A stretch of DNA of 55,056 bases from Patescibacteria group bacterium. Lineage in GTDB: Bacteria; Patescibacteriota; Minisyncoccia; Phycocordibacterales; PALSA-1337. The stretch spans positions 130,640-185,695 of the forward strand of contig JAZKJN010000002.1 in the NCBI GenBank assembly GCA_040384285.1. The letters are read 5' to 3'. Positions 5,971 through 23,719 of this stretch are shown piece by piece. Every line of letters begins with the position of its first letter. Positions within the stretch are counted from its first letter, which is position 1. The notes under the pieces were generated by a model. That model worked only from the letters and a program-made list of their open reading frames with translations, was not told the DNA's origin and searched no databases. A program made the translations under genes and the position numbers.

Positions 5971-7902
5971 TCACACCTGATGCTCTATATCCAATTTCTT
6001 TTTAAGAGGAATTCCGTGAGTAATGATGATTTTTTCATATTCATCGCGCTCAATTGTCTCTGTTTCTACGAGTCGCAGAGCAATAGCATCCAGGGCTTTC
6101 TTGTGTTCTGTGACAATATTTTGTGCCTTTGTATATGCCTCACTCATGATGCGAGCAACTTCGCTGTCTACATCTGCACTTATTTTCTCAGAATACTGTC
6201 CGTCCTCAACACCCTTTCCAAACATAGCTCGTCCTCCAGTTCCTTCGAGTGCAAGTACGCCGATCTTTTCTGACATTCCGTACTTTGTGACCATATCACG
6301 GGCAAGAGCTGTTGAAACCTGAAGGTCATTTGATGGACCAGTTGTCACATCATTGAACATAATCTTTTCTACCACATATCCTCCGAGAGATACGGCAATA
6401 TCATCGAGGAATTCTTTTTTTGATTGCATCTTTCGATCTTCGAGAGGAAGGTGCAATGTATAGCCAGCAGCACGGCCTCGAGAAATGATAGAAATCTTGT
6501 GCACGGGATCTGCAAATGGAAGGACGGATGCAACAAGAGCATGCCCTGCTTCGTGGTATGCAGTGATTTCTTTTTCTTTCTTTGAGAGAAGGTGGCTTTT
6601 TCGTTCAGGTCCGAGCATGACTTTTTCAATTGCTCTGATGAGGTCAAACTGTGCAACCTTTGTTCGCTCTTCACGCGCAGCAAGGATGGCTCCTTCGTTC
6701 ATGAGAGAGTAGAGATCGGCTCCAGAGAAACCTGGGGTACGCTCAGCGATCACTCGAAGATTCACGTCTTCAGCAAAAGGCTTTTTTGCAGAATGGATCT
6801 TCAAAATCTCTTCACGGTCGTTTCTGTCAGGGAGATCGATGGTCACTCGTCGGTCAAAACGTCCTGGGCGGAGAAGTGCGGGGTCGAGTACATCTGGTCT
6901 GTTTGTAGCAGCCATGACGATTACTTTTTCATTTGGTTCAAATCCATCCATCTCCACGAGGATCTGGTTTAAAGTTTGTTCTCGCTCATCGTTTCCTCCT
7001 CCTACACCTGTACCTCGGACACGCCCGACAGCATCGATCTCATCAACGAAAATAATTGCTGGTGCTGATTGCTTTGCCATCTTGAAAAGATCTCGCACGC
7101 GAGAAGCTCCAACTCCCACAAACATTTCTACGAACTCCGATCCAGAGATCGCAAAGAAAGCAACATTTGCCTCCCCTGCCACAGCCCGTGCAAGCAAAGT
7201 CTTTCCTGTACCGGGCGCACCCATGAGAAGAATTCCTTTTGGGATCACTGCACCGATATCCAAAAACTTTTTGGGATTTTTCAAAAAGTCTACGATCTCT
7301 GCGAGTTCCTGCTTTGCCTCTTTTGCTCCAGCCACATCTTTAAATGTTACTTTTTGTTTTGCATCGTCAGGTAGAGTGATGCGCGCTTTCGATTGACCGA
7401 AAGAAAATGCTTGCATACCGGCACCCTTCACTTGTCGGGTGAGAAACCAAATAATGAGTGCGAGAAAAATGAGAGGTACAAGGAATGGTGTGAGTTGTGC
7501 AAGCCAGAAGATGGTGCCACTCGGACCTTCTACATTGATCTTTACTGCGTTCAATTTTTCAGGAGTGAGTCCGTACGCAGCAAAAGTTTCTGTGATGGCG
7601 GCATCATTTTCTTTGTTTGTCTGCTTTGTCGTACCGTCGACATAGTTTGCAATAAGATCATCTCCTTTTATCGTAATCGCGGTAACTGTCCCCTTCTGCA
7701 CGTCACTTACAAGCTCAGAGAGAGTGATTTCGGTGGCTGGGTTTGTCTGGTCCGCTATGACTGAGTAGATACCAGAGATCAAAAAAAGAATGAGGAGTCC
7801 GAGGGACATAGTCTGGAGCAAGCCAAAACGTGAGGGCTTTTTAGGAGCCTTGTTTTGGGGATTCTGGTGGGCGGGGTTTGGAGTGTGGGGATTATTTTGC
7901 AT
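5971..7902 (-). CDS. ftsH: ATP-dependent zinc metalloprotease FtsH
   Basis: Two TM segments, Walker A GAPGTGKT, Walker [35 protein letters not shown] zinc motif. Confidence 0.98.
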
Positions 7903-9184: not shown

Positions 9185-9591
9185 GGGGATGAAAGGCCTC
9201 GACAGTTGAGGTACTTCCCTATGCGCATTGTAGAGCCCTACGGTCTCTTTAATCCCGTGGAAATCGTAACTGCACAATCAGCAATTACAAAAGTTAAGTC
9301 TTCTGTATCTCCATATTTTGGAGTGCAGGATCTTGCTTTCTCTTACGCTACGGTGTAAGTGACGCTCCGCACTTGGTGTCAAAATGAGTGTTGGAGTGAT
9401 ATAACCTTTGACTAGAAATTCAAGTCCCTTCCCTGCTTGAGTTTTGAAACTTCGGGAATCGCCTGCATATGTTTTGCAAACTTTAGAGTATGCAGGTTAA
9501 AAGAGGGCGACCTCGTGAAAGTCTGATATACAATGTAGAAGCGTAGTGAAACCTTATCTGCACGGCGGTTCAATTCCGCCCATCTCCACCA
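9185..9591 (+). ncRNA. ssrA: tmRNA (one-piece, 407 nt)
   Basis: 5' GGGGATG pairs with 3' CATCTCC-ACCA; T-arm GGCGG-TTCAATT-CCGCC; follows smpB; internal tag ORF present. Confidence 0.95.
9272..9358 (+). other. tmRNA tag reading frame AQSAITKVKSSVSPYFGVQDLAFSYATV*
   Basis: Resume context AATCGTAACT-GCA; 28 codons then TAA; hydrophobic C-terminus. The resume codon is inferred from the usual AACT-GCA context. Confidence 0.75.
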
Positions 9592-11085
9592 TCTGGAAGT
9601 TTGGGCAGAAATGTCAGAGGAGTCGCGCACCGCGACCACGGTTTCAGCCAATGAATTCCAGGGTTTAGTGAAGGAAACGGTTAGAGTTTGAGCGCGCAAA
9701 ATGCGGTTCGAGCCAACCTTTTTAAGAAATGACTTCATTTCTAACCGGTTGTCTTGCAAAGCCCATGTTTCTGCCTCATTTGCCAGCAAAACCCACTTTT
9801 TTAGGGGTTCGAGCCGACTCGTTTTACTCTTCTCCAACATCACGATCTGCTGGTCGAGTTCGACCTTTTTCGGAACAAGTGGGTTTTTCATTTCCTTGAA
9901 CTCTGCGAGGTCAAGGCCGCCGTCTGCGAAGGCGGTATTGAGTCGGTCCAACTTTGTCTTGAGAGACGCCTGCTCCGCGCGTAGCGCGTCAATGCGCTTC
10001 TGCTTTGCCTGAGATTCTTCGCCCTCCCACGTTTCGATTCTTGCAAGGAACCGTTCCTTCCATTTGTTCGGAATGGTGACAAGGCCGACATTCCGCTTCA
10101 CCTCCAGCCCGAACTTTTCCTCTCGCGTAAAGCTGCGGTCCTCGCACGGCACGTTTTTGTTCTTACGCGTGCAACGATAGTAGTGGAAGCGAAGGCCACT
10201 TTTTTTGACGTGCCGTTCACCCGTGATACAGTATCCGCATGACCCGCAGGTTGCGAAATCCAGAAAGGTCAGTTCCCTGTTCCCCTTCGTGTGCCGGGTC
10301 TTTCCGACTTTCAAAAGAGCCGCTTGAATTCTGTCGAAGGTTTCTTTGGAGATGAGCGGAACGTGGACGCCTTGGTGTAATTCGCCCGTGTGGGTGAAGA
10401 CACCGTAGTAGAACGGGTTGCGAAAAATCCTGACGATGGTCCCGAAGGTAAGCGGCTTGCCGCTAAGGTTTCCGACAATCCCGATCTTCTCAAATTCGAG
10501 TTGAATGGCTCTGAGCGAAAACGCACCAGTCGCAAACTTCCCAAAGATAGCTTTCATCTTTGGGAAGACCTCTGGATCAGGTTCCACTGTGCGAAGTTTG
10601 GGTTCGTTGAAGTATCCCATCGGCGCGAGGCCAGAATATACTCCACGGCGAACTTTCTCTCGGATGCCACGGCGGATGTCTCGGGACAAATCTCGCACGT
10701 ATTGATTCGCGATGCCGAATTCGAGCGCCATCATGATGACGTTGTCAGAAGGAAGATAAACACGCTCGAAGGTGCGAATTTCCTTAATCTGCGCTCGCTG
10801 GAGAAGGCCGATGATTCTTCCGCCGTCGTCAAAGTTGCGAGCGATGCGATGAAGCGCCCAGCATAAAATTCCATCCGCTTCACCCAACTCAATGCGTCGA
10901 AGCATGTCGTTGAAGACCGGACGGCCTGGCCCTTTCGCACTTTTGCTTTCCTCCAAGCGATCAACAATGACGAGGCCCTTTTCGAGAGCGATTTGGTTTA
11001 GCTCGGCATACTGAGCATCAATGGAAAGAAGCTGGCGATCTTCATCCTCGCTCGACTTGCGGCAATAAATGAAATACTTGAGCAT
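9412..11085 (-). CDS. Large serine recombinase (integrase); C-terminal 57 aa are read from the antisense strand of ssrA
   Basis: Catalytic YCRKSS, ESKSAKGPGRPVF, HRIARN; recombinase domain GLAPMGY; Zn ribbon CGSCG...YYRC...C; coiled coil. Likely start is MLKYF at 11085 (ORF track starts at 11091). Confidence 0.95.
   Translation of the reverse strand: MLKYFIYCRKSSEDEDRQLLSIDAQYAELNQIALEKGLVIVDRLEESKSAKGPGRPVFNDMLRRIELGEADGILCWALHRIARNFDDGGRIIGLLQRAQIKEIRTFERVYLPSDNVIMMALEFGIANQYVRDLSRDIRRGIREKVRRGVYSGLAPMGYFNEPKLRTVEPDPEVFPKMKAIFGKFATGAFSLRAIQLEFEKIGIVGNLSGKPLTFGTIVRIFRNPFYYGVFTHTGELHQGVHVPLISKETFDRIQAALLKVGKTRHTKGNRELTFLDFATCGSCGYCITGERHVKKSGLRFHYYRCTRKNKNVPCEDRSFTREEKFGLEVKRNVGLVTIPNKWKERFLARIETWEGEESQAKQKRIDALRAEQASLKTKLDRLNTAFADGGLDLAEFKEMKNPLVPKKVELDQQIVMLEKSKTSRLEPLKKWVLLANEAETWALQDNRLEMKSFLKKVGSNRILRAQTLTVSFTKPWNSLAETVVAVRDSSDISAQTSRWWRWAELNRRADKVSLRFYIVYQTFTRSPSFNLHTLKFAKHMQAIPEVSKLKQGRDLNF
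9584..9706. repeat. 123-bp perfect inverted repeat, left arm (last 8 nt of ssrA + integrase 3' region)
   Basis: Base-by-base reverse complement of 11602-11724; flanking bases differ on both sides. Confidence 0.97.
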
Positions 11086-11100
11086 AGACACATTTTACCA
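11086..11100 (-). promoter_or_regulatory. Extended -10 (TGgTAAAAT) 6 nt upstream of the integrase ATG
   Basis: Minus strand reads TGG-TAAAAT-gtgtct-ATG. Confidence 0.55.
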
Positions 11101-11127
11101 GAAGACAAAAGTAATTGCGACCATCAA

Positions 11128-11535
11128 ATGACATTCACGCCCAAAAAAGTTTCTAAACATCTGCTCGCATCGTTGCGAGGCACTTCCCCAAACGAGCGAG
11201 TGCTTCACCGGTTGCATAGCGTTGTGCTTGTGCTCAAGGGATTCTCCTGTTCGGACGCGGCGAGACTGTATGGAAATTCAGAGCGTATCGTGGCGTATTG
11301 GCTCAAGCGCTTTGAGGAACATGGAATTAATGGCTTGCGTGAAGGTGCTCGAAGTGGGCGTCCAAGCACGCTCACTCCAAAGCAACTTCGCGCAGTTCAG
11401 TCCTTCGTTCGGGCAGCGCAGTCGAAGAATGAAGACGCCACTGGACCTTCGCTGGCAGCATTCTTGAAATCGACCTTCAAGGTGTCGCTCACGAAACGTC
11501 AATGCAGACGAATTCTGAACCAGATTTCTTTTTAA
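11128..11535 (+). CDS. Stand-alone IS630-type helix-turn-helix protein (no DDE domain)
   Basis: AARLYGNSERIVAYWLKRFEEHGINGLREGARSGRPSTLT and a second wHTH (SLAAFLKSTFKVSLTKRQCRRIL); no catalytic domain follows. Confidence 0.8.
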   Translation: MTFTPKKVSKHLLASLRGTSPNERVLHRLHSVVLVLKGFSCSDAARLYGNSERIVAYWLKRFEEHGINGLREGARSGRPSTLTPKQLRAVQSFVRAAQSKNEDATGPSLAAFLKSTFKVSLTKRQCRRILNQISF

Positions 11536-11601
11536 CCGGTTAATCTCCTTCCTGGCTCGAAGTCGAATTGTGAGACGAGATGACAGAAGTGATTTATGTC
11601 T

Positions 11602-11724
11602 CCGCATTTTGCGCGCTCAAACTCTAACCGTTTCCTTCACTAAACCCTGGAATTCATTGGCTGAAACCGTGGTCGCGGTGCGCGACTCCTCTGACATTTC
11701 TGCCCAAACTTCCAGATGGTGGAG
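11602..11724. repeat. 123-bp perfect inverted repeat, right arm
   Basis: ccgcattttgcgcgctcaaac...cttccagatggtggag is the reverse complement of 9584-9706. Confidence 0.97.
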
Positions 11725-11773
11725 CATGTTGGAGTTAGCTCGAACCTTTTTCGATGAAAACCCAAGCGCTTGA
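11602..11773 (+). pseudogene. Detached copy of the integrase 3' end with an alternative C-terminus (...SRWWSMLELARTFFDENPSA*), attP-like
   Basis: Translation RILRAQTLTVSFTKPWNSLAETVVAVRDSSDISAQTSRWW is identical to the integrase, then diverges. Confidence 0.85.
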
Positions 11774-12488
11774 CCCATGCAATGACCAGGACTCGAACGA
11801 GCGTGAGGGTATCTCCACACCCCTCCCCGCAGTGGGGACAAGCGTGCATGTCAAAATCTCCTGACTGGTTAATGTTTTCTCTGCGTTTCCATGTGCTTGC
11901 ACCACCCCCGACATCGGTCGGTTTCCGGCTCGCACGGCGCTGGTATTTTCAGCGCGGTGCCGTGCTCGCCTCCAACCTCCCTCGTCGCTCACGCGACCAA
12001 CGAGTTCCCCCGACGGACGGTATTGGAGAATGTGAATGGCCTTCCCTCCGTCGTGAGACGGATCAAAGCTTGGTCACAAGCCTTCAAGGTGAACGCCGCC
12101 GTGTCGGCGGCTGGGTGGTTTCGGAATGCAAATATATTTTGGTCGTACTGTTGGCGATTTAGTTTGTTTATTTCCCGGCTCTCCCGCTCTGCGCCTCGCC
12201 ATCCAGCTTTCACCCCATATCCATCACCACGGTGTCTCTGCGACAACTGCATCACTTGCGCAGCGTGTTGAGGTAAAGGGCAACGCTGCGCTGGTGTGTT
12301 GGTTGGGCGCTCCGTGTGTATCGGAGCGCCCTTTTGTCGTCTTGAATTCCAACCCTCTGCCTGCTCAACATTCTCTCGGCAACCCGTTGTTGCCGTTCCC
12401 TAAGTTGGGGCGCTCGGCGTTGTTTCCGAGCGCCCTTTTCGTTGCCACTCCCCACAGATGTCTGAACCACTGGCGCAACGTCGCGCCC

Positions 12489-12707
12489 ATGGCATTCGGT
12501 GGAGCACAATACTTTCGTCGGCGTGAAGACTGCGTGGCGCGGACCACGCCGGCAGACAGCCCGCATCGTCAGTTCACGATCTATTGTGTGAAGTGCGACA
12601 GCTACATGGTGCGGGTGATCGCCGGCTACAATGAGGAAAGCGGCAGCGTGCAAATCGTGCTGCGCTGTGGGCAGTGCGGGAATGCGGAGTGCGTGGCGAA
12701 CGCCTGA
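12489..12707 (+). CDS. Small zinc-ribbon protein (72 aa)
   Basis: CVKC...CGQC in the C-terminal part of ORF 12126-12707; ATG at 12489 chosen as the plausible start. Confidence 0.55.
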   Translation: MAFGGAQYFRRREDCVARTTPADSPHRQFTIYCVKCDSYMVRVIAGYNEESGSVQIVLRCGQCGNAECVANA

Positions 12708-12710
12708 CGC

Positions 12711-13367
12711 TCAGAGCGAATCGGGAAGCGGTCGCAAACATTCCGGCCCATTGAAGGCTGGCGTGTTCATGCGGCGATCCACGGGATAGAACTCGAACCC
12801 TGTGAGTAATGGCTTTTCCAGAATGCTGCGGAAGCGGTCGCTCTTGGTGTCGAGCCATTCGCCTAGTAAGTCGTCGGGAACGACCACGGGCATTCGGTTA
12901 TGCACGAAGGTTAGCTCGGACGAAGCCTCGCGCGTCACGATGGCGAAGGTGTCCGTGGCTTCACCGCCCGGCTCGGCGTGCGCGTAGATGCCCGCGAAGT
13001 AGATCGGTTTCTCTTTCTGGCGGATGATGCGGTAGGGTTGCTTGCCGCCATTCTCGGTTTTCCATTCGTACCAGCCGCTTGCGGGCACAAGGCACCGTCG
13101 TCCGCCGATGGCTCCGCGAAAGAGCGGGCTGGTGGTGATGCCTTCCACGCGGGCGTTGATCGGTTTTACCTTCGGATTCTCTTTGGCCCAATGGGGAATA
13201 AAGCCCCATCGGAAACCTTCGCCCACGATTTCCTCACCACGCGGGAAGATGACGCCCGCGCGCTGGCTTGGTGCGAGGTTGAAGTTTTTTTGGAACTGGA
13301 AGGCAAAGCGTTCGCCGTGGATCGCCACGCGCATTTCCTCGCCGTTCTGGCTGAAACGTCCGCACAT
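12711..13367 (-). CDS. SOS response-associated peptidase (SRAP/HMCES/YedK family; abasic-site protection)
   Basis: N-terminal MCGRF (catalytic Cys2), NARVE, RCLVPASGWYEW, HNRMPV. Confidence 0.95.
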   Translation of the reverse strand: MCGRFSQNGEEMRVAIHGERFAFQFQKNFNLAPSQRAGVIFPRGEEIVGEGFRWGFIPHWAKENPKVKPINARVEGITTSPLFRGAIGGRRCLVPASGWYEWKTENGGKQPYRIIRQKEKPIYFAGIYAHAEPGGEATDTFAIVTREASSELTFVHNRMPVVVPDDLLGEWLDTKSDRFRSILEKPLLTGFEFYPVDRRMNTPAFNGPECLRPLPDSL

Positions 13368-13370
13368 GGG

Positions 13371-13577
13371 TCAAAGAGGGAGCGCTGGAAAGACCACGCG
13401 TTGCATCTCCTGTTGCGCGGCCAGAAAGTCAGCCTCCGCCTTTTGCCAGCGCTGCACGGTAGCGTCATCAACCTCCACCTCGACAGACGCAGAGTGGGTG
13501 CTTGCGAGATCGGCCAACTCGCCCACGTACCAGAACTGCGTGTCGTCTTGATTCAGGCGAAGTTTCATGGCGAACAA
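13371..13577 (-). CDS. Small hypothetical protein co-transcribed with SRAP
   Basis: Stop lies 3 nt before the SRAP ATG; protein-like composition. Confidence 0.6.
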   Translation of the reverse strand: MFAMKLRLNQDDTQFWYVGELADLASTHSASVEVEVDDATVQRWQKAEADFLAAQQEMQRVVFPALPL

Positions 13578-13795
13578 ATAACGCCGCGCGGGGACGGGCG
13601 CAACGGGAAGCCGGGGGTGCGATCACAGATGTTTTGCCCGATAGCACATCTGTCAAACCGGGTTGAATTAGCGCGGTGCATTCCACATGCGCGCGATAAG
13701 GAGCGGCGTAGGTTTCCCCGTCGCCGTGGGTTCGGTCCATTTCCCACCTGCGACAAACCCAGGCGGGGCCAGATGCGTTGCTGGCCTCGCCACTT

Positions 13796-14332
13796 TTATT
13801 TTGGCAGCAGTCCGATTTCAGGCCAGAGCGGTTCAAGATCCTTTTCGTCCAGCGCGGTGAGCTTCCAATGCTTCTCCGTGCCGTTGCGCTCCGCAACTTC
13901 AAGCGCGGTGTCCAGCCAACTGCGCGCCTCGGCCATCTTTCCAATCTGGCAGTTGTAGCAGGCGAGAGTGAACGGCAGCAGCGGTTCGTCCGGGAAGTCG
14001 TTGATTGCGTCGAGCAAGAGCGCCAGCGCGCTTTCGATGCCACCGGTCGGCATCCTGCGCGCGGAATACGAGCGCCATGCGAACACCTCGGCGTCATCAG
14101 GCAGAAGCCGCGTCAGTCCCTCCGCCACGCTAAACGCCATCTCATGCTTGTTGGCTTGGTTGAAGATCCGCCAGCGCAGTTTCAGCACGTCGGGCCGGGC
14201 GCGCTCTCGCGAAGACAACTGCTCCAATTCCTCGTAGGCGCTCAGGAAATCGCCGAGTTCAATCCAGCCCTCGGCGGCGCGGATGTGCTGCTCAGTGCGG
14301 GCGTCCGTGTTCAATGCGGCGGACGCTAGCAA
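13796..14332 (-). CDS. Tetratricopeptide-repeat protein
   Basis: HIRAAEGWIELG, AFSVAEGLTRLLPDDAEVFAW, LPFTLACYNCQIGKMAEARSWL helical repeats. Confidence 0.8.
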   Translation of the reverse strand: MLASAALNTDARTEQHIRAAEGWIELGDFLSAYEELEQLSSRERARPDVLKLRWRIFNQANKHEMAFSVAEGLTRLLPDDAEVFAWRSYSARRMPTGGIESALALLLDAINDFPDEPLLPFTLACYNCQIGKMAEARSWLDTALEVAERNGTEKHWKLTALDEKDLEPLWPEIGLLPK

Positions 14333-14379
14333 GGCAACGGCGGGCTTGCCAGTCGCGCGTGAACGTGAAGGATTGGCGC

Positions 14380-14967
14380 GTGAAAATCCCCGGCTGCCTG
14401 CTGGCCCTGCTGCTGTCTGTCGTCTGCGCTGTTGGCGCGACGGTGCAGGACTACGCGGACAAGATCGCGCCGCTCATTGATCCGGCCAAACTGGCGGAAC
14501 TTCGGGAGCGTGGAGCAAATCAGCGCGTCCAGAAAATCACCTACTACCTTTACTCCGCCAAAAAGGATCGGCTGGATGCCACCGCCGTTGCCAGAGCGGC
14601 AGTCAAGGACGTGCGGATGAAGAAAGCCGCTGGCGATCTGACGGTGTTAGCCATGATGCGCAACGTGAGGATTGCGGAGCAGTTGGGCTGCACTGATGCC
14701 GCCGGGTTGTCTGAAATGCGCAAAGGCAATGCGGCCACGGTACGCTTTGGTCCTTACGCGGGCGATCAACTCTCGGTGGACCACATCATTCCGTTTTCAG
14801 TCGTGCCGGAACTCGACAAGGTGATCGCGAATTTGGAGTTGATGCCCTCGCGGATGAACTCGAAGAAAAGCGCGAGCGTTGGGCAGCGGCAGCGAGACCT
14901 TGCGACGAAGCTGAACAAGGCCGGGCTGCTCAGTGACGTGGGCTTGAGGGCAGTGGCAAGTCGCTAG
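14380..14967 (+). CDS. Exported protein with a C-terminal HNH-like motif
   Basis: Hydrophobic N-terminus IPGCLLALLLSVVCAVGA (GTG start inferred); SVDHIIP...ANLELMPSRMNSKK. Confidence 0.7.
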   Translation: MKIPGCLLALLLSVVCAVGATVQDYADKIAPLIDPAKLAELRERGANQRVQKITYYLYSAKKDRLDATAVARAAVKDVRMKKAAGDLTVLAMMRNVRIAEQLGCTDAAGLSEMRKGNAATVRFGPYAGDQLSVDHIIPFSVVPELDKVIANLELMPSRMNSKKSASVGQRQRDLATKLNKAGLLSDVGLRAVASR

Positions 14968-15011
14968 GGGCGCTGCATGTTTAGGCGCAACGCCAAACTC
15001 GAACAAACCAG

Positions 15012-16172
15012 TCACAGCTTTTTCAACCGGTAAAAACGGGCGCTTTCCGAAGCGTTGTTCGTGACGAACCATTGCCCCTCACTAAGAACGGGCGGATTGG
15101 TCACATCACCCCAAGCGGCATTCGAAGTCAAAACAAGCGTCGATTGCAGGCAGAACGCGGAGGCATACGCGGGCCAGATGAGAACGACATCGCCTCCGTT
15201 CCACCTCGTCTGCAACGAGACAGGGAAGCCCACCAAGGCAGCAGAATTATAACCGCCGGCGGCCACCGCCGTCACTCCCGTCAAACCGGCGGGCGCTGCG
15301 GTCTGACCGTAGCCGTTAAATCCCCAGGCCACCACGGTACCGTCACCCTTCAAGGCCAGCATGTGCCCTCCTTCATCGCTATCTCCTCCTCCGGCTATGG
15401 CTTTGACTCCGCTTTGCGCGGCCAGCGGCACGACTCTTTCGCCATGACTGCTGGGACCCCAGACCAAAACCAGACCGTTCGATTTCAAAACCGCGCTGTG
15501 CAAATACCCTGCGGCCATGGCCATGTTCGTGAATCGAGCCGAGTAAGGAACCTCCAGCGGCTCGTCGGGATCGTCGCGATTGTCCCCCCACTCGGACACC
15601 AAACCGTTGGCTTGCATGATTAAACTGTGATCGCCACCGGCGGCGATGGCTGTGACTCCGGTCGAACCGGTCGGCCCTGTAACCTGATCATAGAAGTCAT
15701 ATCCCCACCCCACGACCGTGCCGTCGTTTTTCAAAGCGAGACTGTGATCAAGCCCGGCCGCGATAGCCACCACCCCGCCTTGAGCTGCCACCGGGACATC
15801 AGTCTGGCCGTCCCCATTATATCCCCAAGCCACCACCGAACCGTTGGTTTTCAGGGCCAAGGTATGAAAACCTCCCGCGGCAATCGCCGCGACCCCGCTC
15901 TGTGCCGCGACTGGGACCGTCGCCTGACCGGTGTCATTCCGGCCCCACGCCACCACGGAGCCATTAGTCTTCAAAGCCACCACATGCCCGCCTTCGTAAT
16001 CTCCTCCCACGGAAATCGCGATCACGCCGCCCCGCGCCGCCATGGGAACATTCGTTTGGCCGTCAATGCTCCATCCCCACACGATCACCGTGCCCGGATC
16101 GACCGCGAAGGCAGCCATCGCCCCTGTGCATGCTCCGAGGAACGTCATCAATGGGAACCAATATCTTAGCAT
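15012..16172 (-). CDS. Secreted RCC1/BLIP-II-like 7-blade beta-propeller with a C-terminal ...RFYRL domain
   Basis: Signal peptide; repeats AIAAGxxHxLALKxxGxVVAWGxNxxGQ; C-terminal LIWP...LQST...WGDVTN...RFYRLKK. Confidence 0.9.
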   Translation of the reverse strand: MLRYWFPLMTFLGACTGAMAAFAVDPGTVIVWGWSIDGQTNVPMAARGGVIAISVGGDYEGGHVVALKTNGSVVAWGRNDTGQATVPVAAQSGVAAIAAGGFHTLALKTNGSVVAWGYNGDGQTDVPVAAQGGVVAIAAGLDHSLALKNDGTVVGWGYDFYDQVTGPTGSTGVTAIAAGGDHSLIMQANGLVSEWGDNRDDPDEPLEVPYSARFTNMAMAAGYLHSAVLKSNGLVLVWGPSSHGERVVPLAAQSGVKAIAGGGDSDEGGHMLALKGDGTVVAWGFNGYGQTAAPAGLTGVTAVAAGGYNSAALVGFPVSLQTRWNGGDVVLIWPAYASAFCLQSTLVLTSNAAWGDVTNPPVLSEGQWFVTNNASESARFYRLKKL

Positions 16173-16365
16173 CGGGGGTTTATCGTCGGATATCTGTGAC
16201 TACCTAAGAAGGTGAACCATGCTGACGCGTAACGACCCAAGCTCAGCGACTAACGCCGAGAGGCAAGGTGGGGCGCACGAGACGTGTCCAAATTGCCGCC
16301 CCGCTCTTCTGTTCGGAGCGGGGCGGCTGTTCGAGCTAGCACATGTTTGGCCATCGCCTTGGTTG

Positions 16366-17811
16366 TTACTTACCGTCCGGCTGAAATGGTGGTGGATCTC
16401 CAGCGCAGGCTGGTTTGTCATCCAGCGTAATTGCTGTCCGATACGTGGCTAAACGACACGCGGCGGATGGGTGAGAACAAATCCCAGCGGTCGCTTTGGG
16501 TTTCGGCAGGTCGAACAGATTTCCAGCCATCAATCCGTAAGCGAATAGGTTGTAAAGCTGGTCGCCTCCCTTCCGAATTTGCTCGATTGCAAATGGCCCC
16601 CACCAAACACGGCGCTGCGCGACCATCGCTCCCCAGTAGTCCGCTTGCCCCTCACAGGACGCCCACGAATTTTCACCTGGATATTGCGGCGGGCCACCGA
16701 AGTGGTGCCCAATCTCATGAGCAAGCACAAGACCGGCGCCCTCGACCTGAACGTATCGGTGACGCAACAGACCTCCCTTGAGAGCGACATGACGTGTGCT
16801 GCCCTCACGCCACGCGTAGGCGTTTACGGTGTCGTCATTCCAGTCAACATGATAGATAACATCGGAATAGCTCCTCTTGTAGTTTGAGACCAAATACTCA
16901 GCAACTTCGTAGGGCACCGAGTTGTCAAGTGGCTCCAGCAACTCTGCTTTCGGGGTCTCATACTCTGGAGGGAGGAAATTGATCGCTCCCGCTGGTACTT
17001 TGACTGGCTGATACGGCTCAAAGAACTCGTCAGCCGCTATGGTAATTTTGGACTTCAGAAGACTGAGACCAAACGCGGCCTGACCCATCAGTGCGTCCTT
17101 GTGCATCACTCGATACTGTCCCGAACCCACCTGTGGACGGCTCAATCCGGTGTCGAGTCGCTTGGCGAATGTCTGAAGGTAATAATCCGCCGACACAACT
17201 CCTTTGGTGTTGATGAAGTGACCGTCGGCATTGACCTGCTGCATGTCCCATTTCCCGACCGCGATGTGGTGAAATGCCCCCTTGTAGTATCCGGCCACAA
17301 CCGCCTGAATTGAAACGGGCTTCAGACTTGCATCAACCAATTTGTCAGACGGTGAAAGGCGGTCAGCGCGAACCAAGCCCTTGGCCGGCGTCATGAAAAG
17401 ATGGTCAGGCGTGACGAGCAGATCCGTATCGTTTTCAAGCTTCACATAGATGGCGTAATAAATCGGCTTTGGGCTGTAGTGCGTTCCTTGGCTGTACACC
17501 ACTGATGATTTTTGCCATGTTCCGTCCTTTTGTAGAGCCAGAACGGTTTCGCCAACTTTGATGCCGTGAATCTCCTTGGACGCGTTGGCATCGACCGCGA
17601 CAAGTGTTCTTCCTTCAAGGCAGCTGCACTTGCAGTAGCACATCGAACCGTCGGGAAGCTCGAAATAAACCAGTCCGCCAACTGAGTGGCAGACGGCGTC
17701 AATCTTCTTCCGCTTCTGGTTGCATAAGTCCTCTGAGCAAGGGCCAGCTTGAGAGTAGGCGTCTTGGGCAAGCAGCGCGGTTGCGAGGACGGCGAGCATG
17801 TAGGCTTTCAT
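16366..17811 (-). CDS. Secreted precursor: Cys-rich peptide + Hint domain + zincin (M48-like) metallopeptidase
   Basis: Signal aa 1-20; Hint start CLEGRTLV (Cys64), block B TPDH (134-137), end HFINTKGVVSADY; LAHEIGH and EGQADYW. Confidence 0.85.
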   Translation of the reverse strand: MKAYMLAVLATALLAQDAYSQAGPCSEDLCNQKRKKIDAVCHSVGGLVYFELPDGSMCYCKCSCLEGRTLVAVDANASKEIHGIKVGETVLALQKDGTWQKSSVVYSQGTHYSPKPIYYAIYVKLENDTDLLVTPDHLFMTPAKGLVRADRLSPSDKLVDASLKPVSIQAVVAGYYKGAFHHIAVGKWDMQQVNADGHFINTKGVVSADYYLQTFAKRLDTGLSRPQVGSGQYRVMHKDALMGQAAFGLSLLKSKITIAADEFFEPYQPVKVPAGAINFLPPEYETPKAELLEPLDNSVPYEVAEYLVSNYKRSYSDVIYHVDWNDDTVNAYAWREGSTRHVALKGGLLRHRYVQVEGAGLVLAHEIGHHFGGPPQYPGENSWASCEGQADYWGAMVAQRRVWWGPFAIEQIRKGGDQLYNLFAYGLMAGNLFDLPKPKATAGICSHPSAACRLATYRTAITLDDKPACAGDPPPFQPDGK

Positions 17812-18025
17812 TTTCTCCTTTTTTGTTTTGTTGTTTTGTTGGTTTGTGCGTTCTTACGGAAATCCATTTCTTGTTTGTCGTTGTGCGCGTCGGGATGTCC
17901 AACGTCCGAAGTTGGTGGCCCGCTCACCAACTACATGGTAATTCCGCAGCTAAGGTTGCGGATTTTCTTTCACCCCAAGTGACGCCAGTTCTGGCGCCGG
18001 TTCTGCAAGGGCTTTTCCCGGCAGC

Positions 18026-18052
18026 AAAAAGGCGCGACGGTGAGGTCGCGCC
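18026..18052 (-). terminator. Intrinsic terminator (8-bp stem + U5 on the minus strand)
   Basis: Minus strand GGCGCGAC-ctcacc-GTCGCGCC-TTTTT, downstream of 18229-19221. Confidence 0.7.
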
Positions 18053-18228
18053 CTGTCCGCAAAAGAATATCGCCGGGCTTCGCACCCGGCGGCTGTGACT
18101 TGGCTTCCTGCCATGGAGTCGGTTGCCGCGCTAAAAAACGCTATTTTGAGGCATGATTCCCCCCGTTTGGACTAATCGATTGCGTCGACAATTCGACTCA
18201 GGCGAGGATGAATTTCACCATTACGCTC

Positions 18229-19221
18229 CTAGTCAGTTTCGATGTTGCAGATGAGGTTGTGAATTGTTGCTTCACCCGATTGACCGTCGAAAGCGCTCCC
18301 GAGAACCAATTCGAGTTGCAAACGACTCGCACCTTTTGAAGCAGTTCCGTTTTTAGGCGGAATAAATTTGATTGTCGCCGTGGTGGAGTCCGAGGGTTTT
18401 ATCTCAGTTGCTTTTACAAAAAAACCATGTTGCCCGTGATCAGTCTCAACTCCTCTGACCAAGCTGTAATCGCTCCGAAACTCCGCTCCGTTGGCGTCAG
18501 TGATCGTTCCTCTCAAACCACTTTGAGAATCCAATCTCACTGCGACCCAAATACTTTTCTTCTGATTTTGATTCGCGAAGTTCAAGGCGAGCGAAAAATC
18601 GGTTTCGTTTACGATCCGCAGTGATTTCACCTCCACACGCAAGTCTCCAAACGTCTTTGCGAATTTGACTTTTTGCGCGCCTACGTCGGCGTCCTTCACT
18701 TCGCTTGCCGGTTTCGCCAAAAGTTGCTGCGCGGGCAAATCAGCTTTGAATTTGATTCGTGCTGCACCGGCTATCACCGCCGTATCCGTCGCAATGATTT
18801 TGGCGGTAATTTCTACGGACTGGTCCATGGAAACAATAGTTCCCAGAATGAGTGCATCAACGCCTGCGAATTGCCCAAGCTTTTTGGCGTTTTCCGGTGC
18901 CACGAGTCCGGTCGCGGTGAGTTTGTGCTCTGCCAGAATACTTTTGAGGTTAGCTCGGTCGAGAACGGAGTAGTTGGTCTGTTGAAGCACGAGGTTCACG
19001 GTGATTTGCTCGGCCAAGTATCTGCCAAGCTCGCTTGAGTTGCCCTGCAAATCAGTGAAGTCGAGCACCGTCACCTTCTTCTTTCCCTGCTGGCTTACTT
19101 GGGATGCAAGCTTCGTCGTCAATTCGGCAAGTCCACTCTCCATGTTTGCCACCTGCGCCGATACGTTGGGGCAGACGAGCAGACACAAAATCAAGATCAA
19201 GGTGGTCCATTTTGTATTCAT
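18229..19221 (-). CDS. Exported FlgO/CsgG-like domain protein with a C-terminal beta-sandwich
   Basis: Signal peptide; KVTVLDFTDLQG...GRYLAEQI, VLDRANLKSILAEHKL, KKLGQFAGVDALILGTI. Confidence 0.75.
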   Translation of the reverse strand: MNTKWTTLILILCLLVCPNVSAQVANMESGLAELTTKLASQVSQQGKKKVTVLDFTDLQGNSSELGRYLAEQITVNLVLQQTNYSVLDRANLKSILAEHKLTATGLVAPENAKKLGQFAGVDALILGTIVSMDQSVEITAKIIATDTAVIAGAARIKFKADLPAQQLLAKPASEVKDADVGAQKVKFAKTFGDLRVEVKSLRIVNETDFSLALNFANQNQKKSIWVAVRLDSQSGLRGTITDANGAEFRSDYSLVRGVETDHGQHGFFVKATEIKPSDSTTATIKFIPPKNGTASKGASRLQLELVLGSAFDGQSGEATIHNLICNIETD

Positions 19222-19229
19222 GGGCGCGA

Positions 19230-20003
19230 TTAGGGAGTGATGGGTTCAGTCAAGGTGAAGAGCATGTTGGTTTCAGCTGCGATGGCTGCAATGAGTCGTT
19301 CTTCGGCCATGGCACGAGCTTGTGGTTCCTTAAATCCGGCTCCGCTGGCGCTGAACGTCCAGCTGTGGCTTACGGTCGAGCCGGTGATGGCCAGAGCTAC
19401 GATTTCAAGCTGCGCACTCGCGGTCATCACATTTTGTAAATCTGGATTGGTTGAAACTTGAACGCTGTGCCGAGCAAGAAGAACTTGGTCCAGCACGCCC
19501 GCAAGCTCCAGCCGGTCGAGGACGTTTTGCGAGCCGCTGAAGGCGTGCTCAAACATTCCATCCGAGACAAATTCCAAGGTGAACACCCCGGTCAACACAC
19601 TCACTTTCTTGGGGCGAAGGTGATTTGAAATCGCAGTCGCGAGCGCACCATTGAGAATCTTGGCGTCAGTCGCAACGACAACACCAATCGTTGTACCTGA
19701 TTTCGGCGGAAGGTTTGGTCTCACGTATCGCGTCAAGAAAGCCCTGCGCGTCGCTGCGGGGTCTTCGAGCACGGGCTTCACGCTGGGCTTGCTTCCAAGA
19801 AGTTGTTCCCACTCCTTGCGTCGTGATTCCGATTCAGCCCTGGGTCGGGATTCTTGCTCGTTCACGACAACGCGTCGGGGCGCTCTTTCTTCAGACGTCA
19901 CCTGTTGCTGCCGAAACGCGGTCACGCCGGATTTAATGATTAACGCAACGACAAGGAGGCTGCCGACGAACATGAGTGATTTCCATTTTTCAACGGGCTT
20001 CAT
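19230..20003 (-). CDS. Membrane-anchored hypothetical protein, co-transcribed with the FlgO-like gene
   Basis: N-terminal TM; 8-nt gap to the downstream gene. Confidence 0.7.
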   Translation of the reverse strand: MKPVEKWKSLMFVGSLLVVALIIKSGVTAFRQQQVTSEERAPRRVVVNEQESRPRAESESRRKEWEQLLGSKPSVKPVLEDPAATRRAFLTRYVRPNLPPKSGTTIGVVVATDAKILNGALATAISNHLRPKKVSVLTGVFTLEFVSDGMFEHAFSGSQNVLDRLELAGVLDQVLLARHSVQVSTNPDLQNVMTASAQLEIVALAITGSTVSHSWTFSASGAGFKEPQARAMAEERLIAAIAAETNMLFTLTEPITP

Positions 20004-20246
20004 GGGGCCAATGTGCGTGTGTGCTGAGAAAATTTGCCAATGTGCGATTTTCAGGCAAGCACAAATCGTTATGCACAGGACAGCGCGCGCAGGAGTGCGC
20101 TATAATTGATTTGCCTCATTTTTTCCGGACAAGCCTCTATTACCATGCCGGCTCGTAACACGTTTGCCGGCATTCCATTTTGAATATGTTTTTCAAGGTG
20201 CATGTTCTTTCTGGCGGGGTTTCTCGTGGAGTAGGGGCTTGTCTGG

Positions 20247-21512
20247 ATGGAATTTGAAAACGACTACATTACTTTCGGTAATCGACACCAATGGGGGGCA
20301 GAAGTCCCCTGGGGGCTAGATGCGCACTCGCGCCGCCAGCATACCTACATCGTCGGCCAGACCGGCACCGGCAAATCAACTTTGCTTCGCAATCTCATTC
20401 TTCAGGACATTGAGCAAGGTCACGGGGTCGGCCTCATCGACCCGCACGGAGACCTGGCTCAAGACATACTCGACCACATTCCGCCGTGGCGAACGGACGA
20501 CGTGGTGTATCTCGATCCCACGTCAGATGCTCCGGTGGGGATAAACTTGTTTCGTGCGACCGGACAGGATTGGCATCTCGTGGCGGCCGGTATCGTTTCC
20601 GCTTTCAAAAAGATCTGGGGTGATTCCTGGGGGCCGCGTCTCGAATACATCTTGTTCGCCACGCTTGCGGCACTCATCCAGTGTGAAAACACGAGCCTCT
20701 TGGGAGTTTCCCGAATGCTTTACGACGCCCGCTATCGCTCGTGGGTCGTTCGACAGATTAAAGACCCGATGGTGCTGTCGTTCTGGGTGAATGAATTTGA
20801 AAGCTACGAGCGACGCTTCATGCAGGAGGTCGTGTCTCCGGTTCAGAACAAAGTGGGACAGCTTCTTCTGTCGCCGCCCTTGCGTCATGTGTTGGGACAG
20901 GTGGGAACGAAAATCGACTTTCGTTTCATGATGGATCGCCGTCGTATCTTCATCGCAAATCTTCGGAAGGGCCAGTTGGGCGAGACGCACAGCAGCCTTC
21001 TTGGTTCTCTTTTGGTTACGGCCTTTGAAATCGCCGCCCTTTCTCGTTCGGATTTGCCCCCAGAGAAGCGGCAAGATTTCCACCTCTACGTTGATGAGTT
21101 CCAAAACTGCGCAACCGAATCTTTCGGAAGCATTCTTTCTGAGGCCCGCAAGTATCGACTCTGCCTAACTTTGGCGCATCAATACACCGGGCAGCTAAGC
21201 GAGGAAACCAGCAAAGCGGTTTTCGGTAACGTGGGAACCTTGATTTCATTTCGTGTCGGCGAAGCGGACGCCTCGATGCTTGAACGGCAGTTCGGCGGTG
21301 GGTATGCTCGCGCACAATTCACGGGGCTGGAAAACTTTGAAGTATGCGCTCGATTGCTCAACCGAGAGCCGTTCCTAGGCAGGTCTTTGCCGCCGGTTTT
21401 GTCCACGCGAAACCGACGCAAGATCATCCAAAAGCGTTCGCGTCAGAAGTACGGAACGCGGCGCACTCTGGTGGAAGAGAAAATCGAAAAGTGGCTCCGC
21501 AAACGTCATTGA
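20247..21512 (+). CDS. VirD4/TraD-like coupling ATPase (HerA/FtsK superfamily), copy 1
   Basis: HTYIVGQTGTGKS, LIDPHGDLA, LYVDEFQN, LSEARKYRLCLTLAHQY, FGNVGTLISFRV. Confidence 0.9.
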   Translation: MEFENDYITFGNRHQWGAEVPWGLDAHSRRQHTYIVGQTGTGKSTLLRNLILQDIEQGHGVGLIDPHGDLAQDILDHIPPWRTDDVVYLDPTSDAPVGINLFRATGQDWHLVAAGIVSAFKKIWGDSWGPRLEYILFATLAALIQCENTSLLGVSRMLYDARYRSWVVRQIKDPMVLSFWVNEFESYERRFMQEVVSPVQNKVGQLLLSPPLRHVLGQVGTKIDFRFMMDRRRIFIANLRKGQLGETHSSLLGSLLVTAFEIAALSRSDLPPEKRQDFHLYVDEFQNCATESFGSILSEARKYRLCLTLAHQYTGQLSEETSKAVFGNVGTLISFRVGEADASMLERQFGGGYARAQFTGLENFEVCARLLNREPFLGRSLPPVLSTRNRRKIIQKRSRQKYGTRRTLVEEKIEKWLRKRH

Positions 21513-21519
21513 GATTCGC

Positions 21520-22254
21520 ATGACCATTCCACCATTAAATGCTCGGCTGTTTTTCAGCGTCCGCACCCTCATCAATTGCGCCATCATCGGCGCAATCTTC
21601 ATTCCACTAACCGTGCTCTTTCATGGAGTTATTGGTGGCTGGATTGCGACCTTGCTGCTCATCGGCGCCCTCTACTTCCTTTTCTTTAATGTGTTGCAGA
21701 AGTTGCCAGTCACAATTGACTGTCCGCACTGCCGCGAGAACCTCGTTACGAACACACCCTGGGTGTGCGGGGAGTGTGGCAAAACAAACCGGGATGTTGA
21801 CGCCTTTCCTTTTGTCCACCGGTGCTCGCACTGCTCTGCCGAACCAAAGGCTTACCGGTGCCATCATTGCACCGAACTCATTTTTCTCGGAAGCGACCAT
21901 CGGAAACAGAATTTTGCATACTCGCTCGACAATCGGCCTCCTGACCAAACACCGCCGGCTGAGGACGACAGCGTGAAGCAGCGCAAGGCGCGAGAAGCGC
22001 TCATCCACGAGATCAAAATGGCTGAACTGGCCTTCCAGCTTGAAGAAAACAAGCAACGCGCTGAATTCGGAAAGAAGAAAACTCCAGTCGAAGAAATCGA
22101 AATGAGCTTCTCAAAGTTTTACGCGCGTGCCATGGGCTCTCAGGAATTCGCACAGCGCAAACGCGCGGAGGCCGACGAAACTTACAAAGATCAGCCTGAC
22201 TTCCGGAAGCGTGCTCACGAGACGATTGATAACTGGCTTCGAGAGCGGGCCTGA
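21520..22254 (+). CDS. Two-TM protein with multiple CxxC zinc knuckles
   Basis: Two hydrophobic segments then CPHC, CGEC, CSHC, CHHC; directly follows the VirD4-like gene. Confidence 0.75.
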   Translation: MTIPPLNARLFFSVRTLINCAIIGAIFIPLTVLFHGVIGGWIATLLLIGALYFLFFNVLQKLPVTIDCPHCRENLVTNTPWVCGECGKTNRDVDAFPFVHRCSHCSAEPKAYRCHHCTELIFLGSDHRKQNFAYSLDNRPPDQTPPAEDDSVKQRKAREALIHEIKMAELAFQLEENKQRAEFGKKKTPVEEIEMSFSKFYARAMGSQEFAQRKRAEADETYKDQPDFRKRAHETIDNWLRERA

Positions 22255-22406
22255 TTTCCGCAGTGCTCACTTAGTAATTATCTGACATCGGCTATTTCTC
22301 GGGCGCGTTCGCGGTGCGAGCAGTTTTCCGCAAGACAACTTTCTGTTAAAATGAAGCCGGAACAGTTCGTTCCTTAACTTCAACTTCAACCCACAGGAGA
22401 TCAGCA

Positions 22407-22706
22407 ATGGAAACTCAGCTTCGACCTGTCACAAGGTCATTGGCAAAATTTTGCCCCGGAGAGATCGTGGCTACGCCCAACGCCCTCGCGCAAATTCCTC
22501 ACGACGAAATTCTGCATTCGCTCGGTCACCATGTTCAAGGTGACTGGGGCCAATTGGATACGGAAGATTTGCAGTCAAACGAGCGTGCTTTGAAACAAGG
22601 AGGTCGCTTGTTCTCGCAATACTTCTCGGTTCAAAGAATCAAATTCTGGATCATTACCGAAGCGGACCGCTCGGTCACGACAGTGCTACTCCCGGAGGAC
22701 TACTGA
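22407..22706 (+). CDS. Small plasmid/ICE-associated conserved protein (HxxGDWG...IITEADRSxTTxLLPxxY type)
   Basis: Motif as stated; GGAG RBS; overlaps the primase start (TGATG). Confidence 0.8.
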   Translation: METQLRPVTRSLAKFCPGEIVATPNALAQIPHDEILHSLGHHVQGDWGQLDTEDLQSNERALKQGGRLFSQYFSVQRIKFWIITEADRSVTTVLLPEDY

Positions 22707-23719
22707 TGAGCATTTGGATCGACTTCAAAGAACTGCGCTCAAAGCTCAGTTTCGAGCAAGTGCTTCAGCACTACAAAGTGGAGCTCAAAACCAAGGGTTC
22801 ACAGCATCATGGGTTCTGCCCACTCCCGAATCACGAGGGGAAGAAAAACTCACCGTCATTCTCGGCGAGCTTGGAAAAGAAAATCTTCCAATGCTTTGGC
22901 TGCGGAGCAAAGGGCAACATACTCGACTTCGCCGTCCTCATGGAAGGTGGCAAGCCTGGCGACGGTGACAAATTGAGAAACGTGGCGGTGGCGCTTCGAC
23001 AACGGTTTGGACTGGAGAAAAATACTAAGTCCTCACCATCAAAAGAAGCCATGACTGCCCTGCCTGCTAAAAAGGCGGGCACCGTTCTTGTGAATGCCAA
23101 ACTTGATTTCGAGTTAAAGACGCTCGACTTCGATCATCCGTACTTACGAAGTCGTGGCTTTACCGATGAAACCATTCATCACTTTGGCCTTGGCTATTGC
23201 TCGAAGGGGTTTCTTCAAGGACGCGTTGCTGTGCCCTTGCACGACCAACTCGGACGATTGGTAGGCTATGCAGGACGAATCGTCGATGATTCAATCATCG
23301 ACGAAGATAACCCTCGCTACAAGTTTCCCGGACAGCGAGAGCACAAGGGGATTACTTACGAGTTTCGGAAATCGGAATTTCTGTACGGCGGCTACCGCAT
23401 CAAAGAGCCTGTCGATGACCTCGTGGTTGTCGAAGGATTCCCTTCGGTATGGTGGTTTCATCAACTCACGATTCCAAACTGCGTGGGGCTCATGGGGTGG
23501 AGTTGTAGCGAAGCCCAGGCGAAACTCATCATTGGGCACACGAAACCAAACGGCCGCGTCTGGCTGCTGTCCGATGGTGATGACGCTGGAATTCGTTGTG
23601 CCGAAAGCTTTTCTCGACTGGTGGCTCGGGATCGATTTATTCGATGGATAAAGCTTCACCAAGGCAAGCAGCCGACAGATTACCAAGAGGCGCAATTGCG
23701 GAATTGTTTGAACCAGTAG
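22706..23719 (+). CDS. DnaG-like primase: CHC2 zinc finger + Toprim
   Basis: CPLPNH...FQCFGCG; YLRSRGF; VVVEGF and DGDDAG Toprim motifs. Confidence 0.9.
   Translation: MSIWIDFKELRSKLSFEQVLQHYKVELKTKGSQHHGFCPLPNHEGKKNSPSFSASLEKKIFQCFGCGAKGNILDFAVLMEGGKPGDGDKLRNVAVALRQRFGLEKNTKSSPSKEAMTALPAKKAGTVLVNAKLDFELKTLDFDHPYLRSRGFTDETIHHFGLGYCSKGFLQGRVAVPLHDQLGRLVGYAGRIVDDSIIDEDNPRYKFPGQREHKGITYEFRKSEFLYGGYRIKEPVDDLVVVEGFPSVWWFHQLTIPNCVGLMGWSCSEAQAKLIIGHTKPNGRVWLLSDGDDAGIRCAESFSRLVARDRFIRWIKLHQGKQPTDYQEAQLRNCLNQ

Follow-up and report, generated by a model that had tools for sequence, protein, structure and literature searches.

A Hint domain set between a six-cysteine module and a zincin-like domain: a probable autoprocessing precursor in a widespread bacterial family

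Introduction

Hint domains are, to our knowledge, the only protein modules able to form a thioester in the backbone independently of ATP, and beyond the inteins we know of few uses of them that are well understood, namely Hedgehog cholesteroylation, BUBL conjugation and toxin release. Here we describe a Hint-containing protein encoded within 55,056 nucleotides of the genome of a Patescibacteria group bacterium (assembly GCA_040384285.1, contig JAZKJN010000002.1, positions 130,640 to 185,695; this whole stretch is called the window below). The Hint domain lies between an N-terminal module containing six Cys residues and a C-terminal domain resembling M48 metallopeptidases. The gene was first singled out in a prediction made by a model from the DNA letters (the original prediction), which took the product to be a Hedgehog-like secreted precursor. 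We favour, with a probability of roughly 0.6, the view that it is a Sec-exported, single-turnover autoprocessing precursor which frees the 43-residue module and perhaps the zincin too.

The protein can be compared with several described systems, each of which it resembles in part. With A-type BIL domains (2LWY; BUBL BIL2, 6Y75/6TMM) it shares a Hint fold of about 146 residues, an N-terminal Cys, a block-B TxxH motif, the lack of a nucleophilic residue at the +1 position and a placement between two unrelated domains rather than inside a host protein. It differs from them in ending with Ser-Ala/Gly-Asp rather than His-Asn, in matching the PT-HINT and Intein_splicing profiles only below their cutoffs, and in its flanks, which are a fixed six-Cys module bearing a C-x-C-x-C-S ladder on the N-terminal side and a zincin on the C-terminal side. 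Hedgehog/Hog proteins similarly combine a signal peptide, a small secreted cargo and a Hint domain, with a thioester predicted at the last residue of the cargo; here, however, a zincin replaces the sterol-recognition region and the junction is Ser-Cys-Leu rather than Gly-Cys-Phe.

The PT-HINT domains of polymorphic toxins (Zhang et al. 2012, PMC3482391) also lie upstream of a C-terminal enzymatic domain and are found in mobile or conflict-type islands, and such toxins are known to include metallopeptidase domains. In contrast to those systems, the present proteins lack a long trafficking region and show no polymorphism in the C-terminal domain; no immunity gene is conserved beside the exported forms, and the flank that seems to be the product of processing is the conserved N-terminal one. 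Peptidase family M48 (HtpX, Ste24, BepA; 3C37, 3CQB) offers the same HExxH motif, downstream ExxAD Glu and zincin order of helices and sheet, but the domain described here is soluble, has four conserved Cys residues, is fused behind a Hint domain, places the Glu 18 residues past the second His of the motif and gives weak Foldseek matches. Finally, the 'novel Hint-like' bacterial proteins of Burglin 2008 (PMC2362128), compared by their description, likewise have a signal peptide, a Cys-containing upstream region and a divergent Hint domain outside the intein, Hog and BIL groups; they differ in that their Hint domain is C-terminal and their upstream region has two conserved Cys residues.

Results

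Layout of the precursor

The features of the gene and its product, in window coordinates, are the following.

16366..17811, minus strand: complete open reading frame of 481 amino acids (P0001), comprising leader, Cys module, Hint domain and zincin
17815..17820, minus strand: Shine-Dalgarno-like AAGGAG, 3 nt 5' of the ATG
17752..17811, minus strand: predicted Sec-type signal peptide, residues 1-20 (from sequence, heuristic only)
17623..17751, minus strand: six-Cys alpha/beta module, residues 21-63, with C25, C30, C41, C58, C60 and C62; last residue Ser63
17620..17622, minus strand: Cys64, predicted nucleophile and Hint residue 1; predicted scissile bond between Ser63 and Cys64
17185..17622, minus strand: Hint domain (BIL/intein/Hedgehog fold), residues 64-209
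17401..17412, minus strand: block B TPDH, residues 134-137 (T134, H137)
17185..17187, minus strand: Asp209, final Hint residue, followed by Tyr210; possible second cleavage site (from conservation; PMC4031507)
16927..17184, minus strand: linker, residues 210-295
16396..16926, minus strand: residues 296-472, an M48-like gluzincin domain; its four conserved Cys are at 386, 445, 452 and 469
16705..16719, minus strand: HEIGH zinc-binding/catalytic motif, residues 365-369 (H365, E366, H369)
16639..16656, minus strand: CEGQAD, residues 386-391, an ExxAD motif of M48 type in which E387 is predicted to be the third ligand of zinc

The leader (MKAYMLAVLATALLAQDAYS, residues 1-20), which was called by eye and by hydrophobicity only, has Lys at position 2, a hydrophobic core and a likely cut either between AYS and Q or between SQA and G. 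The 43-residue module that follows (residues 21-63) reads QAGPC...CYCKCS and contains six Cys, while the Hint domain ends ...GVVSAD immediately before YY (Asp209/Tyr210). The whole protein has 11 Cys: those of the module, Cys64 and another four within the zincin. This odd count (6 + 1 + 4) would make Cys64 the sole unpaired thiol in an oxidising compartment. Every motif string picked out in the original prediction (leader, module, Cys64, TPDH, SAD followed by Y, HEIGH) is present where it had been placed. A terminator-like hairpin at 18091-18071 belongs to the upstream gene, so that the precursor gene probably has its own transcription start.

Fold and affinities of the Hint domain

An AlphaFold2 model of the full-length protein, built from an alignment of 39 homologues, gave a predicted local distance difference test score (pLDDT) of 90.2 and a predicted template-modelling score (pTM) of 0.86. 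Foldseek comparison with the PDB produced 58 matches at E<=1e-3, and the 50 listed were all inteins, BIL domains or Hedgehog. The top match for residues 64-209 was Tetrahymena BUBL BIL2 (E 1e-8); others included the gp41-1, DnaB and RecA inteins, the C. thermocellum BIL domain and Hedgehog (1at0/6tyy), with template-modelling scores (TM-scores) on the targets of 0.7-0.8, up to 0.82. A profile of the family's Hint region matched the C. thermocellum BIL domain 2lwy (E 5.5e-5), and the profile alignment to Hedgehog set Cys64 against Hedgehog Cys1 and the TxDH motif (TPDH here) against TPAH.

On the predicted structure, residues 64-209 are a genuine Hint domain: Pfam is merely suggestive here, and it is the structure prediction that settles the matter. 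The original prediction had placed a Hint fold at residues 64-210, naming its absence as grounds for rejection, and had picked out Cys64 and TPDH; the fold is there in the model (64-209), and these residues are highly conserved as well as aligned with their Hedgehog counterparts. Its Hedgehog-like label fares less well, since structure and profile alike place the domain nearest to BIL domains and mini-inteins, and a sterol-recognition region is lacking. Membership of the true Hedgehog/Hog group can be ruled out by that lack and by a score against the Pfam Hint profile (PF01079) of 24.9, below the cutoff of 29.7. An intein is ruled out too, there being no +1 nucleophile (the residue is Tyr210) and the flanks being independent domains: they are not two halves of one host protein, given that stand-alone zincins occur without the module and stand-alone modules without the zincin. 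The domain does not fall within the A-type BIL or PT-HINT definitions, with profile scores below cutoff and an end of Ser-Ala-Asp instead of His-Asn.

The model also bears on the linker. Its pLDDT is 85-96 in the full-length model and falls to 46-62 over about the first 60 residues when it is modelled without the Hint domain, residues 210-270 being confident only in the full-length model. This dependence suggests that the linker packs on the Hint domain and probably wraps it.

Conservation across the family

A word-indexed search recovered about 120 relatives, and 112 full-length members were used for the conservation counts; an exhaustive phmmer search with residues 21-215 returned 400 cluster representatives at E<=1e-3. 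Relatives occur in Bacteroidota (Chitinophagales, Ekhidna), Streptomyces, Kitasatospora, Nonomuraea, Nitrospirillum, Bacillus pumilus, Paenibacillus polymyxa and many metagenomes, where they carry names such as 'Hint domain-containing protein' or 'M48 family metalloprotease', or are simply hypothetical proteins. The searchable literature yielded no description of the family architecture.

The predicted catalytic residues of the Hint domain are strongly retained: Cys64 in 96 of the 98 homologues covering that position, T134 in 102/112, H137 in 107/112 and D209 in 111/112. The residue after D209 is Tyr, Phe or Trp in 110 of the 112, and Cys, Ser or Thr in none. As for the zincin, both zinc-binding His residues of HExxH are found in 112/112, the catalytic Glu in 111/112, E387 in 111/111 and the four Cys in about all of the 112. 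The module follows the pattern C-x4-C-x10-C-x15-19-C-x-C-x-C-S, then the Hint Cys, and is near-invariant wherever the N-terminus is present; the conservation of Cys spacing, which the original prediction proposed checking, is evident. Conservation of this kind across full-length homologues means that the observed architecture is not a product of chance.

The N-terminus itself varies. By a heuristic count, around 42 members have a signal-like leader, while around 41 have none and begin 2-8 residues before the first Cys. The wider search brought in membrane-anchored forms and leaderless forms of 550-730 amino acids, several of which have lost HExxH but still have the module together with an intact Hint domain. 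P0003 has one further copy of the module at its C-terminus, and P0130 has two. An additional metzincin-like domain (HEIGHLQGARHN) was seen in P0129. L011 has a second copy in tandem (6533-7354), which shares 81% identity across the module, the Hint domain and the linker, stops before the zincin and may be either truncated or a natural short form. A profile scan of the genome contigs with the family alignment found two weak zincin-only loci and nothing else.

Where the module ends

Proteins that have the module and no Hint domain allow its natural end to be located. Two small genes of this sort (L017:8626-8943 and L017:9008-9373) adjoin the gene of a distant relative; their products (a degenerate half-copy plus a full copy of the module) have the C-termini ...CYCYCS and ...CYCYCR. 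Five more Hint-less module proteins from other samples terminate in ...CYCYC plus a single Arg, His or Cys, and the final module copy of P0130 terminates in ...CYCTCH. The Hint-less module proteins are 105-144 amino acids long, and a profile search found no free-standing modules of 25-79 amino acids. The natural end of the module thus lies one residue past the C-x-C-x-C ladder, where Ser63 stands in the precursor, and so matches the cut expected from an N-S acyl shift of the Hint domain at Cys64.

A complete gene of 237 codons within an 86-kb contig encodes leader, module and Hint domain only, so that the Hint domain there has the N-terminal flank alone to process. Taken with the ends of the Hint-less modules, module-plus-Hint genes make it plausible that the module is released as a separate entity, as the original prediction centrally proposed, and together they support the view that the Hint domain releases the module or, at the least, processes its C-terminus. 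Judged by its recurrence at C-termini and as Hint-less genes, the six-Cys module is an autonomous domain. Its extra copy in P0003 has lost Cys2 and Cys5 together, which suggests a C30-C60 disulfide. Nothing in the analysis identifies the peptide as a signal, a toxin or an inhibitor, the roles that had been proposed for it.

The other end of the Hint domain had been interpreted as well: an ending of SADY in place of HN was taken to imply cleavage at the N-terminal junction only. The SADY end is indeed seen, but the restriction to N-terminal cleavage is not borne out, Asp standing at this position in all but one of the full-length homologues. Cyclisation enables inteins with a final Asp or Gln to cleave at the C-terminal junction (PMC4031507), and BIL domains can cleave or ligate without a +1 nucleophile, according to references as they are cited in PMC4031507. 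Since Asp209 is conserved and Asp-ending inteins cyclise, a second cut between Asp209 and Tyr210, or a ligation, is possible.

The zincin domain

PF01435 was matched by 20 of the 20 sequences tested, the window protein scoring 23.9-27.5 bits against a cutoff of 20.3. The ExxAD motif (CEGQAD) aligned with the third-ligand motif of the M48 structure 3c37, and the order of helices and strands in the full-length model is that of a zincin. When residues 210-481 were modelled separately the pLDDT was 75.8; Foldseek with the isolated C-terminal domain model gave weak zincin matches only (MATCAP, E 4.5e-3; SprT-type 6mdx, E 0.14). By profile and motif, the C-terminal domain is a divergent M48-like zincin, for which protease activity is predicted; the window protein has the full set of motifs.

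That activity, which the original prediction expected autoprocessing to switch on, need not be general. HExxH is replaced in P0124, P0125, P0145 and P0192 (by HCLAS, HHLAA, QGLAR or HLISR), all of which retain the module, the Hint Cys1 and TxDH, so that protease catalysis is dispensable in those clades. There are also stand-alone exported zincins with neither module nor Hint domain (P0113-P0119).

A model for processing

In the sequence of events that we favour, the leader would be removed first and the 43-residue module would then fold, probably with three disulfides, of which a C30-C60 pair is one candidate. Pairing of the four zincin Cys residues would leave Cys64 as the lone free thiol. 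Aided by T134 and H137, Cys64 would convert the Ser63-Cys64 peptide bond to a thioester, and attack on this thioester would free the module with Ser63 at its C-terminus, water being the default nucleophile and another acceptor being possible. In a less certain step, Asp209 may cyclise and cut the bond between Asp209 and Tyr210, which would free the M48-like zinc protease.

Genomic context and partner genes

The gene lies within an island-like stretch of the window (9412-23719), which includes the following.

9412-11091: serine recombinase
12711-13367: SRAP peptidase
20247-21512: coupling-protein-like ATPase
22706-23719: primase-like gene

A gene for a tetratricopeptide-repeat (TPR) protein is also in this stretch. 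Directly downstream of the precursor gene is one for an RCC1-repeat protein and upstream is one for a CsgG/FlgO-like lipoprotein; the GC content varies from 0.45 to 0.61 across the window. Comparison of four leader-bearing loci (the window, L007, L013 and L014) revealed no neighbour common to them.

The leaderless relatives, by contrast with these loci, had an adjacent partner gene in 8/8 distinct loci examined. It takes two forms.

Form 1: L001:7454-8062, L006:7348-7872, L012:6395-6832, L017:7801-8355 and L018:9630-10190
Form 2 (Paenibacillus polymyxa, Bacillus pumilus and one metagenome contig): L004:7459-9018, L010:6460-8016 and L011:3351-4895

Form 1, found in Streptomyces, Nitrospirillum, L006, L017 and L018, encodes about 145-200 amino acids with a DPxFLHHL-like motif towards the N-terminus and the cluster CxxC...C[GT][LAI]CGC...CP towards the C-terminus, matches DUF6171 (PF19668) weakly and is conserved even between loci whose Hint proteins are about 30% identical. 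Form 2 has an N-domain of about 130 amino acids with a similar motif, fused to an Aminotran_5 domain of cysteine-desulfurase type. Compared by hhalign, the two types gave no significant match (E 0.04, probability 1.3%); blastp of L018_186 against the N-domain of the L004 partner gave E 4.9e-4 in a tiny database, with a shared DPxF/YLHHL-like motif. Homology of the two N-domains is weakly supported by these comparisons. The Firmicute Hint proteins of L004 and L010, whose partner is the desulfurase fusion, have lost the block-B His (LPDT, TPDS), a coincidence which gives a hint that sulfur chemistry may take place at the thioester or at the Cys module.

A third small gene (90-123 amino acids, weak match to DUF6748), which could be a candidate inhibitor or immunity gene, stands beside the Hint gene and its partner in three leaderless loci.

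L001:8059-8430: third small gene
L012:6825-7097: third small gene
L011:7426-7722, minus strand: third small gene

The genes of two distant relatives, P0124 and P0140, lie directly downstream of a TcA-like gene (L017:1-13692 and L018:1-13773); the same cluster in L017 has a TcB-like gene after it, and L018 has two tandem copies. Both proteins lack a leader and have a CCCSC junction and an Ig-like tail, the zincin motif being lost in P0124 and retained in P0140. Tblastn of both partner types against the window gave no match, and neither partner genes nor Tc genes were found in it. The mobile-island setting of the window gene, along with these toxin-locus relatives, suggests a role in inter-organism conflict.

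Discussion

Several observations weigh against an autoprocessing precursor and have to be set beside the evidence for one. Scores below cutoff were obtained not only with the Pfam Hint profile, as given above, but also with PT-HINT (PF07591; 14.5 against 27.7) and with Intein_splicing, whose scores were weaker than those of Pfam Hint. Five of the 112 homologues have no block-B His, and the Bacillus/Paenibacillus-type members (n=3 in the 39-sequence alignment) have TPDS, LPDT and TPDT in its place, so that the canonical mechanism does not hold for every member. The modules of P0003 and P0130 that remain covalently joined to the zincin mean that release is not obviously needed for function. At the C-terminal junction, a sequence profile of blocks F and G found no intein among the solved structures, and the equivalence of Asp209 with the intein Asn (G:7) is thus based on the model, Foldseek coverage and a match made by eye. 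In that match, which set the Asp209 segment against intein blocks F and G, position F:4 seems to be occupied by His or Asn and not by Asp. Lastly, a search of sequencing runs found the gene in the source metagenome only, and no RNA run containing it.

How the thioester would be resolved separates the alternatives nearest to hydrolytic release. In a Hedgehog- or BUBL-like transfer, which we consider unlikely while giving it more weight than any other alternative, the module would leave with a C-terminal amine or lipid adduct or as a thiocarboxylate, the nucleophile being presented by the zincin-like domain. BIL2, the top structural match, conjugates its N-terminal flank to lysines without ATP (PMC8616854); a Cys-rich or desulfurase-fused partner adjoins all eight leaderless loci; residues 210-270 lose their modelling confidence once the Hint domain is left out; and clades with a dead HExxH retain module, Hint domain and zincin scaffold, a retention that the presentation of a nucleophile would explain. 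Yet the window gene, L007, L013 and L014 have no partner or conserved neighbour, the desulfurase may do other work such as metal or sulfur loading of the Cys-rich module, sequence cannot reveal adduct chemistry, and the module itself can do without an adduct, because Hint-less modules have an ordinary genetically encoded C-terminus. A little less likely still, in our estimation, is the broader proposal that module and Hint domain form an ATP-independent device for activating a peptide C-terminus, its thioester being resolved by a chosen nucleophile: the persulfide of the partner in leaderless forms, giving a thiocarboxylate, or an envelope amine or lipid in exported ones. It is also unlikely, and ranks behind both of these, that there is no self-processing at all, the Hint domain acting as a spacer or as a redox or metal sensor within an intact secreted metalloprotease that carries a Cys-rich binding module. 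The sub-threshold Pfam scores, the members without the block-B His and the standing of cleavage as a prediction from sequence and model all fit such a protein. A spacer is hard to square, however, with near-strict conservation of Cys1, Thr, His and Asp at 30-60% identity, and the module boundary is exactly the natural end of the Hint-less paralogues.

Ligation in place of cleavage has a lower standing, and we regard it as quite improbable: in BIL-type splicing the module would be joined to the N-terminus of the zincin and the Hint domain excised as a by-product. The best profile match, the C. thermocellum BIL domain, ligates proteins without nucleophilic side chains, to go by a title in PMC4031507; Asp209 is invariant at the position of cyclisation; and P0003 and P0130 illustrate that module and zincin can work in one chain. 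Set against these are the proteins of module and Hint domain only, which have no C-extein, the separate occurrence of stand-alone zincins (P0113-P0119) and stand-alone modules, flanks that are not halves of one conserved host protein, and a bulky aromatic residue at +1. Least probable of all is a minimal version of polymorphic-toxin logic with the Hint domain as releasing peptidase, the zincin as delivered toxin and the module as a head that serves in trafficking or targeting. In polymorphic toxins, HINT is known to act as the peptidase that performs the release (PMC3482391), the island contains genes for a serine recombinase, a primase and an ATPase resembling coupling proteins, homologues lie near Tn7-like, IS66, LXG and SUKH genes, and distant relatives sit within Tc-toxin loci. 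Against this, the C-terminal domain is constant across the family rather than polymorphic and its catalytic motif is dead in some clades, the PT-HINT score is below its cutoff, there is no RHS, filamentous or LXG trafficking region, and no immunity-like neighbour is conserved in the four leader-bearing loci. A classical polymorphic toxin is likewise not supported, given the constant C-terminal domain and the want of a conserved neighbour.

Significance

In this family a Hint domain is paired with a fixed mini-domain of disulfide type, and the boundary between them, which agrees to the residue with the natural end of the Hint-less paralogues, makes for a sharp prediction: a 43-residue peptide ending at Ser63. 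The family is large and widespread, and its module is probably freed at one exact bond, which may represent a new bacterial route of peptide maturation. The partner genes of the leaderless relatives and the branch found in Tc loci could mean new peptide chemistry or an accessory step in toxin systems. Should the reading with a chosen nucleophile be true, peptides with modified C-termini would be reached by a new route, and Hedgehog cholesteroylation would have a functional analogue in prokaryotes.

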